From a virus (lineage: Duplodnaviria; Heunggongvirae; Uroviricota; Caudoviricetes), in the IMG/VR virus record IMGVR_UViG_2695420792_000004: a DNA stretch of 9,766 nucleotides. One strand, given 5' to 3'. The first letter of the stretch is position 1; each line of letters starts with the position of its first letter. The notes under the pieces are model-generated. The model was not told the origin of the DNA, made no database searches, and worked only from the letters and a program-made list of their open reading frames with translations. Shown piece after piece: positions 1,297-9,138 of this stretch. The position numbers and the translations under genes are program-made.

Positions 1297-1317
1297 GAAA
1301 AAACCGCCATCAGGCGG
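1297..1317 (-). terminator. Hairpin plus U-tract on the minus strand, about 27 nt upstream of the xis start; possible intrinsic terminator or attenuator
   Basis: ccgcc(1304-1308)/ggcgg(1313-1317) stem with 4-nt loop; the A6 run at 1298-1303 gives a U6 tract directly after the hairpin on the minus-strand transcript. Confidence 0.35.
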
Positions 1318-1526
1318 CTTGGTGTTCTTTCAGTTCTTCAATTCGAATATTGGTTACGTCTGCATGTGCTATCTGCGCCCATATCATCCAGTGGTCATAG
1401 CAGTCATTGATGTTCTCTGCTTCGATAACTCTGTTGAATGGTTCTCCATTCCATTCACCTGTGACTCGGAAGTGCATTTATCATCTCCATAAAACAAAAC
1501 CCGCCGTAGCGAGTTCAGATAAAAGA

Positions 1527-1546
1527 AATCCTCGTCAGTGCGAGGA
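1527..1546 (-). terminator. 7-bp stem-loop followed on the minus strand by a U-rich run; candidate terminator near the left backbone/cargo junction
   Basis: atcctcg(1527-1533)/cgaggat(1540-1546) perfect inverted repeat with 6-nt loop; the minus-strand transcript continues uucuuuuauc. Confidence 0.3.
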
Positions 1547-1719
1547 TGCTGTTCATTGCTGCTATACACTTTTTTGCTCTCAACGTAAGCGGTAGCTCAT
1601 TCTGTTGGGTTGGTGCAGTTGCTTTTAGGAAATGCTATTTACCCCTTAAACGTCGGCTGAAAGAGCTAAAATCCATGCAAAAAATTTACGCAATTTTGTG
1701 TATTATTGTGCAGTAAGTA

Positions 1720-2322
1720 ATGAGCTATTTTCTGCGCAAAAAATGGATGGTAAATTTGTCCGGGGCAGGAAAAATTTTATGGACGCTAAACATGAAAAAA
1801 GATTCGTATCCTTATTTGATTTGCATGACAGTTTCAGGCCTGATCTTTATTTTCCTTTTCTTCTGGTGGCGGGCAGATATTTACAGGGTCACGTTTCTTA
1901 ATCAGAGTATATCCCACTATTACATTCTGTTTAGCATGGGAATAGCTTTTCTGTTATCTCTGTTTTGGGTTAAGAAGGGGATAGTAAAACAAAGCGGCTG
2001 GAAGAGTCTGTCAGCATACCTTAAGGTTTATGCAGGGATGTGCATATTTGCTGGATTTTTTCTGATTATACCCCTTACAACACTAACTTATTTTTTGCCT
2101 GGAGAGACATCGTCTTATGTTGCACCGTATCGGTATACTTCCGGTAGTTCAAAAAGTTGTTCTGGAGCTGAGGTGGATGACCCCGATCTACATGAGAATA
2201 TTCGCATTTGCTATCCGTATGGCAATTATGAGTACGATAATATTATCTATGTTGAAAAGAAAATTAATACATTAGGTGCGGTAGTAACATATGCACAGAC
2301 CGCGCGTGATGATACTGAATGA
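1720..2322 (+). CDS. Hypothetical integral membrane protein: three hydrophobic helices plus an ~75-aa C-terminal soluble tail (200 aa from first ATG; alternative start at 1795 gives 175 aa)
   Basis: Long + strand ORF, opposite in orientation to all flanking early-left genes. Hydrophobic segments YPYLICMTVSGLIFIFLFFWW, YILFSMGIAFLLSLFWV and VYAGMCIFAGFFLIIPLTTLTYFL. Visibly AT-rich; followed by a hairpin terminator at 2357-2380. No family recognised by eye. Confidence 0.55.
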   Translation: MSYFLRKKWMVNLSGAGKILWTLNMKKDSYPYLICMTVSGLIFIFLFFWWRADIYRVTFLNQSISHYYILFSMGIAFLLSLFWVKKGIVKQSGWKSLSAYLKVYAGMCIFAGFFLIIPLTTLTYFLPGETSSYVAPYRYTSGSSKSCSGAEVDDPDLHENIRICYPYGNYEYDNIIYVEKKINTLGAVVTYAQTARDDTE

Positions 2323-2356
2323 GATAGTATATAGCGGGCAAGTTTTAGTTAATTTA

Positions 2357-2380
2357 TCGAGGTAATATAATTTACCTCGA
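2357..2380 (+). terminator. Intrinsic-terminator-like hairpin between the convergent membrane-protein gene and the TraR-like gene
   Basis: tcgaggtaa(2357-2365)/ttacctcga(2372-2380) perfect 9-bp stem with 6-nt loop, followed on the + strand by cucguuuauucu. Confidence 0.5.
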
Positions 2381-2532
2381 CTCGTTTATTCTGGTATTAA
2401 TATTTCGCTTTACGATCGATTTTTATCTGATGATATCATGCGGTTTTCATATACTGACTTACTGTCTTTTCTCCGTTAGCGATTTTCTCCTGCTCAGCGA
2501 TGATTTTATCTTTGGCTTCTAGTTAATTTCGC

Positions 2533-2754
2533 TCACTTCGAACCTCTCTGTTTACTGATAAGTTCCAGATCCTCCTGGCAACTTGCACAAGTCCGACAAC
2601 CCTGAACGGCCAGGCGTCTTCGCTCATCTATGGGATCGCCACACTCACAACAATGAGTGGCAGATATAGCCTGGTGGTTCAGGCGGCGCATTTTTATTGC
2701 TGTGTTGCGCTGTAATTCTTCAATTTCTGATGCTGAATCAATGATGTCTGCCAT
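2533..2754 (-). CDS. TraR/DksA-family C4 zinc-finger protein (73 aa)
   Basis: MADIIDSASEIEELQRNTAIKMRRLNHQAISATHCCECGDPIDERRRLAVQGCRTCASCQEDLELISKQRGSK. The CxxC-(17)-CxxC spacing and size are typical of TraR-like proteins that bind the RNA polymerase secondary channel. Confidence 0.8.
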   Translation of the reverse strand: MADIIDSASEIEELQRNTAIKMRRLNHQAISATHCCECGDPIDERRRLAVQGCRTCASCQEDLELISKQRGSK

Positions 2755-2808
2755 CTTCCATTAATCCCTGAATTGTTGGTTAATACGCTTGAGGGTGAAT
2801 GCGAACAA

Positions 2809-2831
2809 TAAAAAAGGAGCCTGTAGCTCCC
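2809..2831 (-). terminator. Intrinsic terminator on the leftward (pL-direction) transcript, between the 2853-3134 ORF and the TraR-like gene
   Basis: Minus-strand RNA reads GGAGCuacagGCUCC followed by UUUUUUAUU: 5-bp GC-rich stem at 2817-2831, T-tract from the A6 run at 2811-2816. Confidence 0.55.
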
Positions 2832-2852
2832 TGATGATTTTGCTTTTCATGC

Positions 2853-3134
2853 TCACCGTTCCTTAAAGACGCCGTTTAACATGCCGATCGCCAGGCTTAA
2901 ATGAGTCGGTGTGAATCCCATCAGCGTTACCGTTTCGCGGTGCTTCTTCAGTACGCTACGGCAAATGTCATCGACGTTTTTATCCGGAAACTGCTGTCTG
3001 GCTTTTTTGATTTCAGAATTAGCCTGACGGGCAATGCTGCGAAGGGCGTTTTCTTGCTGAGGTGTCACTGAACAAGCCCCATGTCGGCAAGCATAAGCAC
3101 ACAGAATATGAAGCCCGCTGCCAGAAAAATGCAT
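2853..3134 (-). CDS. Hypothetical small protein of the lambda b region; start uncertain (ATG at 3134 gives 93 aa, GTG at 3068 gives 71 aa)
   Basis: ORF ...VTPQQENALRSIARQANSEIKKARQQFPDKNVDDICRSVLKKHRETVTLMGFTPTHLSLAIGMLNGVFKER. Lies in the cluster of small ORFs between exo and the TraR-like gene. See finding on start and frame ambiguity. Confidence 0.45.
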   Translation of the reverse strand: MHFSGSGLHILCAYACRHGACSVTPQQENALRSIARQANSEIKKARQQFPDKNVDDICRSVLKKHRETVTLMGFTPTHLSLAIGMLNGVFKER

Positions 3135-3144
3135 TCAGTGGTTG

Positions 3145-3336
3145 TCATACCTGGTCTCTCTCATCTGCTTCTGCTTTCGCCACCATCATTTCCAGCTTTT
3201 GTGAAAGGGATGTGGCTAACGTATGAAATTCTTCGTCTGTTTCTACTGGTATTGGCACAAACCTGACTCCAATTTGAGCAAGGCTATGTGCCATCTCAAT
3301 GCTCGTTCTTAACTCAACAGGAGATGCTTTGTGCAT
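3145..3336 (-). CDS. Small b-region protein, lambda orf63-like (63 aa)
   Basis: [63 protein letters not shown]. Its size (192 nt) and 28-nt overlap with the upstream ORF reproduce the lambda orf63/orf60a arrangement as I recall it. Confidence 0.7.
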   Translation of the reverse strand: MHKASPVELRTSIEMAHSLAQIGVRFVPIPVETDEEFHTLATSLSQKLEMMVAKAEADERDQV

Positions 3337-3491
3337 ACAGCCCCTCGTTTATTATTTATCTCCTCAGCCAGCCGCTGGGCTTTCAGTGGATTTTGGATAA
3401 CAGAAAGGTCGGGAAATACCCAGCCTCGCTTTGTAACGGAGTAGACGAAAGTGATCGCACCTACCCGGATATTATCGTGAGGATGCTTCAT
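3309..3491 (-). CDS. Small b-region protein, lambda orf60a-like (60 aa from the ATG at 3491; the ORF track extends 2 codons to 3497)
   Basis: [60 protein letters not shown]. The ATG at 3491-3489 overlaps the exo stop (ATGA), consistent with translational coupling. Confidence 0.6.
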
Positions 3492-4168
3492 CGCCATTGC
3501 TCCCCAAATACAAAACCAATTTCAGCCAGTGCCTCGTCCATTTTTTCGATGAACTCCGGCACCATCTCGTCAAAACCCGCCATGTACTTTTCATCCCGCT
3601 CAACCACGACATAATGCAGTCCTTCACGCTTCATACGCGGGTCATAGTTGGCAAAGTACCAGGCATCTTTTCGCGTCACCCACATGCTGTACTGCACCTG
3701 GGTCATGTAAGCTGACTTTATGGCCTCGAAACCACCGAGCCGGAACTTCATGAAATCCCGGGAGGTAAACGGGCATTTCAGTTCAAGGCCGTTGCCGTCA
3801 CTGCATAAACCATCTGGAGAGCAGGCGGTACGCATACTTTCGTCGCGATAGATGATCGGTGATTCAGTAACATTCACGCCGGAAGTGAACTCAAACAGGG
3901 CTCTGGCGTCGTTCTCGTACTGTTTTCCCCAGGCCAGCGCTTTAGCGTTAACTTCCGGAGCCACACCGGTGCAAACCTCAGCAAGCAGGGTGTGGAAGTA
4001 GGACATTTTCATGTCAGGCCACTTTTTTCCGGAGCGGGGTTTTGCTATTACGTTATGAACTTCTGAAGCTGTGATGACGCCGAGCCGTAATTTGTGCCAC
4101 GCATCATCCCCCTGTTCGACAGCTCTCACGTCGATCCCGGTACGCTGCAGGATAATGTCCGGTGTCAT
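3488..4168 (-). CDS. exo: Lambda exonuclease (Red-alpha), 226 aa
   Basis: [69 protein letters not shown]...GFVFGEQWR is near-identical to lambda Exo as recalled. ATGA overlap with the bet stop. Confidence 0.97.
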
Positions 4169-4950
4169 GCTGCCACCTTCTGCTCAGTGGCTTTCTGTTT
4201 CAGGAATCCAAGAGCTTTCACTGCTTCGGCCTGTGTCAGTTCTGACGATGCGCGAATGTCGCGGCGAAATATCTGGGAACAGAGCGGCAATAAGTCGTCA
4301 TCCCATGTTTTATCCAGGGCGATTAGCAGAGTGTTAATCTCCTGCATGGTTTCATCGTTAACCGGAGTGATGTCGCGTTCCGGCTGGCGTTCTGCAGTGT
4401 ATGCAGTATTTTCGACAATGCGCTCGGCTTCATCCTTGTCATAGATACCAGCAAATCCGAAGGCCAGACGGGCACACTGAATCATAGCTTTATGCCGTAA
4501 CATCCGTTTAGGATGCGACTGCCACGGCCCCGTGATTTCTCTGCCTTCGCGGGTTTTGAATGGTTCGCGGCGGCATTCATCCATCCATTCGGTAACGCAG
4601 ATCGGATGATTACGGTCCTTGCGGTAAATCCGGCATGTACAGGATTCATTGTCCTGCTCAAAGTCCATGCCATCAAACTGCTGGTTTTCATTGATGATGC
4701 GGGACCAGCCATCAACGCCCACCACCGGAACGATGCCGTTCTGCTTATCAGGGAAGGCGTAAATTTCTTTCGTCCACGGATTAAGGCCGTACTGGTTGGC
4801 GACGATCAACAATGCGATGAACTGCGCATCGCTGGCATCGCCTTTAAATGCCGTCTGGCGAAGAGTGGTGATCAGTTCCTGTGGGTCGACAGAATCCATG
4901 CCGACACGTTCAGCCAGCTTCCCTGCCAGCGTTGCGAGTGCTGTACTCAT
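4165..4950 (-). CDS. bet: Red-beta single-strand annealing protein, 261 aa
   Basis: [68 protein letters not shown]...KATEQKVAA is lambda Bet. Confidence 0.97.
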
Positions 4951-4955
4951 CCGTT

Positions 4956-5372
4956 TTATACCTCTGAATCAATATCAACCTGATGGTGAGCAATGGTTTC
5001 AACCATGTACCGGATGTGTTCTGCCATGCGCTCCTGAAACTCAACATCGTCATCAAACGCACGGGTAATGGCTTTTTTGCTGGCCCCGTGGCGTTGCAAA
5101 TGACCGATGCATAGCGATTCAAACAGGTGCTGGGGCAGGCCTTTTTCCATGTCGTCTGCCAGTTCTGCCTCTTTCTCTTCACGGGCTATCTGCTGGTAGT
5201 GACGCGCCCAGCTCTGAGCCTCAAGACGATCCTGAATGTAATAAGCGTTCATGGCCGAACTCCTGAAATAGCTGTGAAAATATCGCCCGCGAAATGCCGG
5301 GCTGATTAGGAAAACAGGAAAGGGGGTTAGTGAATGCTTTTGCTTGATCTCAGTTTCAGTATTAATATCCAT
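4956..5372 (-). CDS. gam: Gam, RecBCD inhibitor (138-aa long form; internal Met gives the 98-aa short form)
   Basis: [79 protein letters not shown]...VDIDSEV is lambda Gam. Confidence 0.95.
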
Positions 5373-5470
5373 TTTTTATAAGCGTCGACGGCCTCACGAA
5401 ACATCTTTTCATCGCCAATAAAAGTGGCGATAGTGAATTTAGTCTGGATAGCCATAATTGTTTGATCCAT
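5327..5470 (-). CDS. kil: Kil host-killing (FtsZ-targeting) protein, 47 aa
   Basis: Internal start of the 89-aa track ORF: [47 protein letters not shown]. Overlaps gam by 46 nt and cIII at the other end, as in lambda. Confidence 0.85.
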
Positions 5471-5603
5471 TTTTTGGGACTCCTGGCTGATTAAGTATGT
5501 CGATAAGGCGTTTCCATCCGTCACGTAATTTACGGGTGATTCGTTCAAGTAAAGATTCGGAAGGGCAGCCAGCAACAGGCCACCCTGCAATGGCATATTG
5601 CAT
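5439..5603 (-). CDS. cIII: cIII, FtsH/HflB inhibitor, 54 aa (below the ORF-track size cutoff; found by manual translation)
   Basis: Minus-strand translation from the ATG at 5603: [54 protein letters not shown], stop TAA at 5441-5439. Matches lambda CIII as recalled. Confidence 0.9.
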   Translation of the reverse strand: MQYAIAGWPVAGCPSESLLERITRKLRDGWKRLIDILNQPGVPKNGSNNYGYPD

Positions 5604-5675
5604 GGTGTGCTCCTTATTTATACATAACGAAAAACGCCTCGAGTGAAGCGTAATTGGTATGCGGTAACGCCGCGC

Positions 5676-6044
5676 TCAGGCGGCCTTGATAGTCATATCA
5701 TCTGAATCAAATATTCCTGATGTATCGATATCGGTAATTCTTATTCCTTCACTACCATCCATTGGAGGCCATCCTTCCTGACCATTTCCATCATTCCAGT
5801 CGAACTCACACACAACACCATATGCATTTAAGTCGCTTGAAATTGCTATAAGCAGAGCATGTTGCGCCAGCATGATTAATACAGCATTTAATACAGAGCC
5901 GTGTTTATTGAGTCGGTATTCAGAGTCTGACCAGAAATTATTAATCTGGTGAAGTTTTTCCTCTGTCATTACGTCATGGTCGATTTCAATTTCTATTGAT
6001 GCTTTCCAGTCGTAATCAATGATGTATTTTTTGATGTTTGACAT
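5676..6044 (-). CDS. ea10: Ea10 (lambda early protein, ssDNA-binding), 122 aa
   Basis: MSNIKKYIIDYDWKASIEIEIDHDVMTEEKLHQINNFWSDSEYRLNKHGSVLNAVLIMLAQHALLIAISSDLNAYGVVCEFDWNDGNGQEGWPPMDGSEGIRITDIDTSGIFDSDDMTIKAA matches lambda Ea10 as recalled. Confidence 0.85.
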   Translation of the reverse strand: MSNIKKYIIDYDWKASIEIEIDHDVMTEEKLHQINNFWSDSEYRLNKHGSVLNAVLIMLAQHALLIAISSDLNAYGVVCEFDWNDGNGQEGWPPMDGSEGIRITDIDTSGIFDSDDMTIKAA

Positions 6045-6232: not shown

Positions 6233-7114
6233 TTATGACCACTTTTTGTTTGGGTTTCGTTGGTGAGCGTGGTTTACAGGATTATTTGATATACCCCATA
6301 ACTCTGACTCGCTTATCTCTACACGAGAGAAAGACCTGCTTTCTTTCAGTTCTTTTATAAACCTAGAACCTAAGATGACATCTATTGTACCAGAAAGTTC
6401 TTGTAAAAGATCTATGTTTTTTCTGAGGAAGAAAATATCTTCTTTATATTTAATTTTTACATAGAATTTATTCTGTATTTTTAATATATCAAAGCATGGC
6501 AGATATCTATATCCCTCATATTTTCGCCACTGCTTAACAATTATAACATCTTTTTCATTTACTGCATTAATCAGCCCAAGACCAAGTACAGGTATGAATA
6601 TTCTATTGTCTGCCGAAAGCGTACAATTATCACCACCAGGCAAATATGTATAAATCATGTCGGAATTTTTATACGCATCAACGAATGCACGTAAGAAGCG
6701 TACATATTTTTGCCATCCGTTTATACCGAATTTACCATATAAGTATTCTTTATTTGTTAGAAGAAAACTATTTGTATCAGGATCCTTATCTACAGACCTG
6801 TCGATAAGATCTCCAACTACGTTTACAAAGTCAAAGACAGAGTTTAATAAGAACAATTGTCTTTCAGTAGGGCGAATTTCAATTATGTAGCCAGGATGAA
6901 GACGATATTGCATCTGCTTACGAAGTATACCGAACGCTTGGGTCCGAGCATCTGAAAGCAACTTCTTGTCGCCATCGCCGTGAGCATTGTTTCTAATAAA
7001 ACTGATATAATTTGCTAATTTTTCAGCCTCTTTTTTGTGTTTTTTTCGCTCTGATGCTGAGTCTATTGGTTTTGGTATGGACTTGTAATCAATCTTCTTC
7101 ATTACGTACCTCAT
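6233..7114 (-). CDS. Hypothetical 293-aa soluble protein of unknown function; cargo gene in the position lambda uses for ral/sieB
   Basis: Uninterrupted 882-nt ORF; ATG at 7114-7112 overlaps the N stop TGA at 7113-7111 (ATGA). Visibly AT-rich relative to flanking genes. Lys-rich N-terminus (KKIDYKSIPKPIDSASERKKHKKEAEK); no hydrophobic helices or signal peptide evident. Hairpin 6220-6231 plus U-rich tract directly after the stop. No family recognised by eye. Confidence 0.75.
   Translation of the reverse strand: MRYVMKKIDYKSIPKPIDSASERKKHKKEAEKLANYISFIRNNAHGDGDKKLLSDARTQAFGILRKQMQYRLHPGYIIEIRPTERQLFLLNSVFDFVNVVGDLIDRSVDKDPDTNSFLLTNKEYLYGKFGINGWQKYVRFLRAFVDAYKNSDMIYTYLPGGDNCTLSADNRIFIPVLGLGLINAVNEKDVIIVKQWRKYEGYRYLPCFDILKIQNKFYVKIKYKEDIFFLRKNIDLLQELSGTIDVILGSRFIKELKESRSFSRVEISESELWGISNNPVNHAHQRNPNKKWS

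Positions 7115-7785: not shown

Positions 7786-9138
<1,353 letters not shown>

Follow-up and report, generated by a model that had tools for sequence, protein, structure and literature searches.

We analysed a stretch of viral DNA of 9,766 nucleotides (nt) from the IMG/VR record IMGVR_UViG_2695420792_000004 (hereafter the window), which by its sequence is the early-left region of a phage of the 434-like type, and found in it, at positions 1655-2429 on the + strand, what aligns as a self-contained accessory cassette with one gene, present in two unrelated types of prophage. Our results show that this gene, at 1792-2322 on the same strand, is real and under purifying selection, and that its product of 176 amino acids (aa), as modelled, combines three membrane helices with a small cysteine-containing beta-barrel. 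We speculate that it is an envelope protein which is expressed by the prophage and excludes other phages at the inner membrane, a reading that we place first but hold only tentatively. The existence of an open reading frame (ORF) at this place is not new, since the existing annotation of the phage 434 genome lists it as a putative membrane protein (PMC9119081). An earlier note on this DNA had read it as a divergently oriented moron encoding a membrane protein; that observation is confirmed and the moron interpretation is supported, apart from the start codon, the promoter and the C-terminus. To this we add a corrected start, the domain architecture and topology of the protein, a promoter candidate and the boundaries of the cassette, as well as a link to the accessory hotspot of P2-like phages with relic backbone DNA, chromosomal orthologues and an estimate of prevalence.

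The ORF at 1720-2322, 200 aa long, is the sole long + strand ORF amid genes on the minus strand (int, xis, ORF55, orf73/TraR-like, exo and bet), as the earlier note had seen. Among 5.8 billion proteins searched, 74 relatives were found, close or diverged. Those that are close (96-99% identity) are annotated at 200 aa; those that are diverged (42-78% identity; in Salmonella, Klebsiella, Enterobacter and Cedecea) are 169-180 aa long and all start at M25 of the long ORF. In nucleotide alignments, ATG 1720 is ATC in the copy borne by E. coli P2-like prophages, and the Salmonella copies have stop codons immediately after the positions of both upstream ATGs. Because all diverged homologues begin there and the upstream ATGs are not conserved, we take ATG 1792 as the conserved start, which gives the protein of 176 aa. 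ATG 1720 and ATG 1747 were rejected as starts on these grounds and because they lie upstream of or within the promoter candidate described below. The earlier note had left the choice among 1720, 1747 and 1795; it is its third ATG that is conserved, with a coordinate three bases off.

When the gene was compared with its E. coli P2-borne counterpart, the nonsynonymous divergence (dN) was 0.12 and the synonymous divergence (dS) 1.22, hence a dN/dS of 0.10, with 60% of synonymous sites differing and with 24, 19 and 73 differences at the first, second and third codon positions. The low ratio and the codon-position pattern therefore show that the gene codes for a protein and is subject to purifying selection. 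The family has few members: searching 1.84 billion representative proteins with a profile recovered 62 (47 with E <= 1e-10), and all are of Enterobacterales type except for two long, low-complexity or repetitive proteins (P0124 and P0131), which we treated as spurious and rejected as members. Annotation of the gene varies, with products of 112, 176, 188 or 200 aa given by different gene callers. In L036-L039, four of the P2-like loci in our numbering, the gene is called at 112 aa (5001-5339) though the 176-aa frame is intact, and the 90-position profile of PHROG 1416 seems to have been built from such shortened calls. A record of phage 434 from the 1990s (M60848, 2550-2616) annotates an 'ORF-22+' on the same DNA in another frame.

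The three hydrophobic helices reported in the earlier note are found both by hydropathy and by structure modelling. Hydropathy places them at residues 8-26, 40-60 and 77-102, numbered from M25, which correspond to three transmembrane (TM) segments encoded by nt 1813-1869 (TM1), 1909-1971 (TM2) and 2020-2097 (TM3). The AlphaFold model of the whole protein, run on an alignment of 21 sequences, has helices at residues 5-29, 38-61 and 70-101, together with a short strand in the first loop and five strands (predicted local distance difference test, pLDDT, 86.5; predicted template modelling score, pTM, 0.72). What had been described as a hydrophilic C-terminal tail is predicted instead to be a folded five-stranded beta domain, encoded by about nt 2098-2301, which also forms a five-stranded barrel when modelled alone (pLDDT 88.7). 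The loop between TM2 and TM3 contains four lysines and no acidic residue, and the C-terminal 75 residues contain 12 acidic and six basic residues as well as two invariant cysteines, Cys123 and Cys140. By the positive-inside rule, this would put the N-terminus in the cytoplasm and the C-terminal domain on the periplasmic side, where a disulfide between the two cysteines would be possible.

Conservation within the protein is highest in the C-terminal domain (71-85% identity vs 42-75% for the membrane part), whose invariant motifs CSGAxVxDPxL, IxICYPxGxY and EKRSNxLGxVV persist across genera at 34-78% identity, while the membrane helices carry no conserved charged or polar residues. The searches for remote homologues and similar structures that the earlier note had proposed yielded the relatives described above and no match that would explain function. 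The profile search of Protein Data Bank (PDB) sequences gave a best E of 0.43, Foldseek found no match among viral structures at E <= 0.001, and the only PHROG matched was phrog_1416, a family without assigned function whose match is confined to the C-terminal domain and the last TM helix.

The position of the gene among lambdoid phages is that of a differently filled slot between conserved neighbours, one of the features by which a moron is recognised. In blastn against lambda, the window aligns at 79% over 1-1547 and at 97.6% over 2521-5500, and the AT-rich segment between them, 1548-2520, has no lambda counterpart: these 973 bp of window-specific DNA stand in place of lambda 29356-30379, which contains ea8.5 and ea22. 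The earlier note had placed the lambda-like flanks at roughly 1546 and 2515 and the gene in the place of ea8.5 and ea22, and the alignments bear out both, the replacement being exact. Its description of the ORF as AT-rich also holds and supplies the second feature of a moron, a deviant base composition, as the GC content is 0.36-0.40 over 1651-2550 vs 0.45-0.54 in the flanks. The interval from xis to exo is known as the exo-xis region and has been studied in lambda and in Stx phages, where the TraR-like ORF is called orf73 (PMC10789677).

The same cassette is found in a different kind of prophage. When the window was compared by blastn with two E. coli P2-like prophages (L036 and L018), a single alignment of 775-778 bp was obtained at 76% identity in their gpQ-gpA interval, which spans ~137 nt upstream of the ATG, the coding sequence and 107 nt downstream of it, including the hairpin described below. 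This recurrence of a 775-bp unit in a P2-like accessory hotspot agrees with the independent, moron-type cassette that the earlier note had supposed. Homologues in P2-like prophages are found in Salmonella (70% and 58% identical), in an E. coli variant (78%) and in Klebsiella (56%). They lie between the portal gene Q and the replication gene A, with transcription directed away from Q, a location that applies to the homologues L004-L006, L010-L012, L018-L021 and L036-L039 and not to the window copy itself. The gpQ-gpA interval, next to cos, is the slot of old and tin in P2 and is a hotspot of anti-phage systems (Rousset et al., PMC9122126); in P2 itself, the old-tin transcript begins at the same place, beside cos. 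The E. coli P2-borne protein, WP_000711113, appears in Table S5 of that study as 'hypothetical', next to StbA/StbB.

Two side observations concern these copies. In four Salmonella P2-like prophages (L004, L006, L010 and L011), two ORFs of 81 and 119 aa on the same strand, without Pfam hit, precede the gene (~5230-5890), and in other Salmonella P2-like prophages the gene stands alone. A 3.5-kb contig assigned to 'Candidatus Nanosynbacter' (L022, JARKOR010000073.1) carries the cassette at 99% identity together with two genes of a lambdoid E. coli phage, orf73 and exo, and is almost certainly a binning contaminant.

The left part of the cassette contains DNA that appears to belong to the P2-like backbone rather than to the gene. 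At 1677-1712 (+), three direct repeats with a phasing of 10 bp come after an A-tract, and the whole reads as a degenerate version of a P2-like element: the repeats are TTACGCA (1686), TTGTGTA (1696) and TTGTGCA (1706) in the window, and TTGTGCA in all three positions in the P2-like copies (4690-4729 in L036). When IMG/VR was scanned for the repeat, at least 120 loci came up, many of them probably by chance. In 27 of them, which are P2-like, the full element, TCAAAAAAATTGTGCAAATTTGTGCACTATTGTGCA, lies ~420 nt past a portal gene that is 69-100% identical to that of L036. These 27 loci (for example L049, L060, L072 and L090) have gpA on the far side and unrelated sequence directly to the right of the element, and the three-TM protein is encoded in none of them. 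Because the element occurs at these 27 loci without the gene, we regard it as a backbone element of the P2-like lineage at the edge of the cos-proximal hotspot, rather than as a regulatory site that belongs to the gene alone. At the corresponding place, P2 carries three ATGCA repeats, which overlap the -35 of the old-tin promoter. No convincing match was found between the triple repeat and the known sites of host regulators (OmpR/PhoB type, CRP, LexA and MarA).

A second piece of P2-like DNA lies just to the left of the cassette, where a short relic (1624-1659, +; 37 nt) is 84% identical to L036 4557-4593, on the portal side of the cos-like core. L036 has ~79 extra nt between this match and the cassette, among them a stretch similar to the cohesive end of P2 and a hairpin with a T-run. 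Because of the triple-repeat backbone element and the 37-nt match to the cos flank, we suggest a P2-like source: the copy of the 434 type seems to descend from a P2-like phage and to have kept degenerate backbone from both sides of the cos core, the core itself missing. Beyond the opposite border of the cassette, at 2479-2535 on the minus strand, there is a remnant of an Ea22-like gene, made up of ~44 nt that resemble L036 (2479-2522 vs L036 5521-5564, 77% by blastn) followed by the first ~15 nt of lambda ea22, whose 5' end aligns from window position 2521. In L036, the cassette is adjoined by a 111-aa Ea22-like ORF that shares the N-terminus (M/V)SEINxQALRE with lambda Ea22. The cassette may thus have moved from the cos-proximal hotspot of a P2-like phage into the lambdoid exo-xis region, next to an ea22-type gene, with loss of the cos core, and at least one later exchange would have carried ea22 sequence back into a P2-like phage.

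The cassette may bring its own expression signals. The non-coding ~137-138 nt upstream of the gene are 76% identical to the P2-borne copy, while synonymous sites of the coding sequence differ by 60%; this upstream region, being more conserved than the synonymous sites, is under constraint. It contains a candidate extended -10 element, TGGTAAATT, at 1748-1756 (+; hexamer 1751-1756), with a predicted transcript start at ~1763. Six mobile copies that are diverged (the window, the E. coli P2 type, two types from Salmonella, and those of Cedecea and Citrobacter) share the pattern TGnTAnnnT at 41-45 nt before the ATG; two from Klebsiella have only its -10 part there, and the Enterobacter chromosomal copies downstream of a LysR gene lack it. 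Because the motif by itself is not rare in the window, it is this positional conservation that argues for the promoter. A start at ~1763, with a leader of ~29 nt, would exclude ATG 1720 and ATG 1747 once more.

Two other sites were tried as part of a promoter and rejected. The weak -10 that the earlier note had given at 1697-1704 (TGTATTAT) lies at 1699-1706, inside the P2-type triple repeat and without a suitably spaced -35. A 'CII binding site' annotated in GenBank (OL657226, 27236-27249; window 1696-1709) coincides with two units of the triple repeat and most likely resembles a CII site (TTGY-N6-TTGY) by chance: a CII promoter, which is specific to phages that encode CII, has TTGC-N6-TTGC around its -35 and a matching -10, the TTGT-N6-TTGT seen here belongs to the P2-type triple repeat, and candidate -10 positions downstream of the supposed site are not conserved.

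At the other end, the perfect 9-bp stem that the earlier note had recognised is present at 2357-2380 (+) as a terminator-like hairpin with a 6-nt loop, TCGAGGTAA-TATAAT-TTACCTCGA, with a free energy of -12.3 kcal/mol and the tail CTCGTTTATT, which contains a weak T-run. The region 1400-2600 has four terminator-like sites vs 0.8 +/- 1.0 in shuffles; two of the others, on the minus strand at 1497-1547, match the tL4 terminator annotated in M60848, the older record of phage 434. A homologous hairpin in the copy borne by E. coli P2-like prophages is weaker (-6.8 kcal/mol) and has no T-run. Rfam gave no match within the cassette.

The gene is widespread. Among 5,426 complete E. coli genomes, 911 carry the 434-type coding sequence at full length, with an identity that is almost without exception >= 95%, and the P2-type allele (>= 99%) is present in 77 of the E. 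coli genomes; both occur together in strains RM13322 and FWSEC0007. The gene is thus kept as an intact frame in related prophages, as the moron interpretation of the earlier note had implied. This can be best illustrated by the copy of O157:H7 Sakai, ECs_0804, which lies in prophage Sp3 at the lambda attachment site and is intact though int and bet of Sp3 are pseudogenes and its immunity region is gone. Such persistence in a decaying prophage suggests a value to the host. Searches of the literature by locus tag (including ECs0804) and by accession found no study of the gene.

What this value might be can be considered in the light of the location and the predicted architecture. The protein would sit in the inner membrane with its N-terminus inside and its beta-barrel in the periplasm. 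Transcription would start at the extended -10 promoter of the cassette, run against the direction of the pL operon and stop at the hairpin; because this putative promoter is its own and opposed to the pL operon, production in the repressed prophage is possible. The lysogen might then be protected by superinfection exclusion, in that the entry of other phage genomes would be blocked at the step between periplasm and inner membrane, with the conserved periplasmic domain binding a conserved component of the envelope or of the injection machinery. We lean, without much confidence, towards this exclusion of other phages because of the P2 hotspot context and by analogy to single-gene inner-membrane exclusion proteins. 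A broader proposal is possible but doubtful: the cassette could represent a new single-gene exclusion or defence family, in which a three-helix anchor in the inner membrane bears a conserved, disulfide-bonded, OB-like barrel in the periplasm that stops phage genomes at a conserved stage of their entry, and which, carried as a promoter-gene cassette across P2-like and lambdoid slots, protects ~17% of sequenced E. coli, including O157:H7.

Several observations weigh against exclusion, however. Strong conservation of the periplasmic domain relative to the membrane part is unlike an arms race with variable phage proteins. Neither NCBIfam nor PADLOC has a match to the protein, and Pfam offers only DUF6057 at E 0.26. 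The protein was not among the systems tested in PMC9122126, where it is listed as 'hypothetical' only, and it is absent from the supplementary tables and tested-system sequences of PMC9519451, as far as these parts of that source go. The P2 hotspot also holds cargo that is not defensive, such as par systems and a cytolethal distending toxin (PMC9122126). As to the expression signals, TGnTAnnnT occurs six times in the window vs 4.3 expected, and the T-run of the hairpin is weak and not conserved beyond close relatives. Furthermore, seven Enterobacter species have an orthologue (36-44% identical) at one syntenic, non-prophage chromosomal site directly after a LysR-type regulator gene, and there are copies on Pantoea megaplasmids and, next to ptsG, in Serratia, outside recognisable prophages.

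To these can be added further copies outside recognisable prophages in Cedecea, Pseudescherichia, Citrobacter and one Klebsiella chromosome. Because copies are found in prophages as well as on chromosomes and plasmids, the family is both cellular and phage-borne, and the Enterobacter orthologues in particular show, by their syntenic placement, that it is not purely phage cargo. The Serratia copy (L034, Serratia marcescens pE28_003) lies directly downstream of ptsG among the core genes holB, tmk, mltG and lpoB, and because of these neighbours the linear 67-kb 'plasmid' pE28_003 looks like a chromosomal fragment. The Klebsiella chromosomal copy likewise neighbours an operon of the phosphotransferase system (PTS), and the proximity to PTS genes may be a coincidence. 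PtsG is an inner-membrane factor for the entry of HK97 DNA.

These cellular relatives support an alternative that we rank second and regard as possible, namely that the protein serves the envelope or the fitness of the cell in a way that has nothing to do with phage, its periplasmic domain acting on a component of the host envelope, and that a cellular gene was captured as lysogenic-conversion cargo. Examples of such a role would be stress tolerance, resistance to antimicrobial peptides or bile, and immunity to a bacteriocin or a type VI secretion system toxin that acts in the periplasm. The strongly conserved periplasmic domain suggests a conserved ligand and would suit this alternative too, as would the virulence and maintenance genes that the P2 hotspot also carries. 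It accounts less readily for the situation in E. coli, Salmonella and Klebsiella, where the gene lies in prophage accessory hotspots dominated by defence genes, and no known envelope-stress or immunity family matches the protein.

It would also be tempting to see the gene as a modulator of the development of its own phage, acting in the lysis-lysogeny decision or in induction, since it exactly replaces ea8.5 and ea22 and the exo-xis genes are known to influence lysogenisation and induction (PMC10789677). We consider this improbable: the gene is on the strand opposite to the pL operon, so it would not be co-expressed with the exo-xis genes, and it encodes a membrane protein with a predicted periplasmic domain. 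Moreover, the cassette also occurs in P2-like hotspots and on chromosomes, where the regulatory circuitry of lambda is absent, and it has been kept in a prophage that lost its immunity region. We place lower still, as quite unlikely, an abortive-infection effector, that is, a membrane protein which depolarises or permeabilises the cell once a phage has been sensed. Membrane proteins are common effectors of the defence systems in P2 and P4 hotspots, and the location of the gene in such a hotspot would fit. Yet this is a one-gene unit that no sensor partner accompanies consistently in its different contexts, its conservation is concentrated in the periplasmic domain rather than in the helices, where conserved charged or polar residues are lacking, and the chromosomal orthologues appear to be expressed with housekeeping neighbours. 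Finally, a chance ORF or a decaying relic without function, as might be suspected of a family without annotation on whose start gene callers disagree, is effectively refuted by the dN/dS of 0.10, the motifs invariant across genera, the confident fold and the intact copies in 911 genomes.

The window as a whole contains int, xis, a 55-aa ORF, a 73-aa TraR-like zinc-finger ORF (orf73), exo, bet, gam, kil, cIII, an N-like gene, the cI repressor of phage 434, cro and cII. It is 100% identical over 1500-2550 to Escherichia phage 434 (OL657226) and nearly 100% to 2B8 and mEp332, and over 1298-5500 it is 99.1% identical to 434. Over 1-1301, which contain int and xis, its identity to 434 is only ~77%, and ORF114 of 434 is absent; the window therefore comes from a natural relative of 434 and not from 434 itself, one with a different integration module and arranged like mEp332. 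An ORF of 56 aa upstream of the cassette (1546-1716, +; CPT_434_35, annotated in 434 and mEp332 as 'putative membrane protein') is probably not a gene, as it runs across tL4 and the P2 relic, and the corresponding stretch of L036 is broken by the ~79 nt mentioned above.

Further observations were made elsewhere in the window. A minus-strand ORF of 293 aa (6233-7114), with a GC content of 0.31-0.37 and placed between the N-like gene and a homologue of ea10, is annotated in phage 434 as 'Nun C-terminal peptide-containing protein', has no PADLOC or NCBIfam match and looks like a further inserted accessory gene. Directly downstream of cI, the minus-strand ORF 7786-8262 is the counterpart of Hex of 434, annotated as shielding the repressor from RecA-dependent cleavage (PMID 23303392); at 158 aa the ORF is probably too long, because the GenBank record has a shorter start. 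The lambda cIII thermoregulator element is clearly matched by Rfam at 5558-5616 on the minus strand (88.5 bits, E 4.6e-21).

Thus, the gene is among the commonest uncharacterised prophage cargo genes in E. coli, present in about one in six complete genomes and in Shiga-toxigenic lineages, and its cassette is a concrete example of the exchange of cargo between accessory hotspots of unrelated temperate-phage families, neighbouring backbone DNA included. If exclusion of other phages were its role, it would represent a new envelope-level mechanism with relevance to host range in phage therapy; if it served the envelope for other reasons, it would be a widespread lysogenic-conversion factor.

Among known systems, a class I holin was considered and rejected. 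Such holins are small proteins that also have three TM segments, but with the N-terminus out and a charged C-terminus in the cytoplasm, and they are encoded in the lysis cassette, whereas our protein is predicted to be N-in/C-out with a folded periplasmic domain of 75 aa, its gene belongs to the exo-xis region at a great distance from the lysis genes, and no holin family of Pfam or PHROG matches it. A close analogy is with SieA of P22 (PMC10883804), likewise an inner-membrane protein of a prophage with three predicted TM segments, encoded by a single independent gene and of similar length (162-164 vs 176 aa). Homology to SieA was rejected (hhalign probability 0.1%, E 0.56): the motif FxRYPxEAxxFNK of SieA types A-C, predicted to be cytoplasmic, is absent from the family alignment, and the conserved part here is the predicted periplasmic barrel with CSGAxVxDPxL...ICYPxGxY. 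As for the fold, the domain resembles small beta-barrel or OB-like domains (DUF1093, PDB 3npp; cold-shock and OB folds), which are likewise five-stranded barrels of ~70 residues and some of which are membrane-associated, as is predicted here.

The genomic setting can be compared with that of other cargo genes. Lambda bor, lambda lom and HK97 gp15 are examples of morons in lambdoid phages. Like these, the gene is an extra one between conserved neighbours, has a deviant composition and promoter- and terminator-like signals, and encodes an envelope protein that may be expressed by the prophage; it differs in that it lies in the exo-xis region on the opposite strand, not in the late or tail region, and belongs to an unrelated protein family. 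With ea8.5 and ea22 of lambda it shares the slot between xis and orf73, where the Ea22-like remnant still lies beside the cassette, but these genes are on the other strand, show no sequence similarity to it and encode soluble cytoplasmic regulators rather than a membrane protein. Although the protein is unrelated to Old (an ATPase-nuclease) and to Tin, its homologues share with old, tin and the other cargo of the gpQ-gpA interval (PMC9122126) the cos-proximal slot, and are read away from cos as old is.

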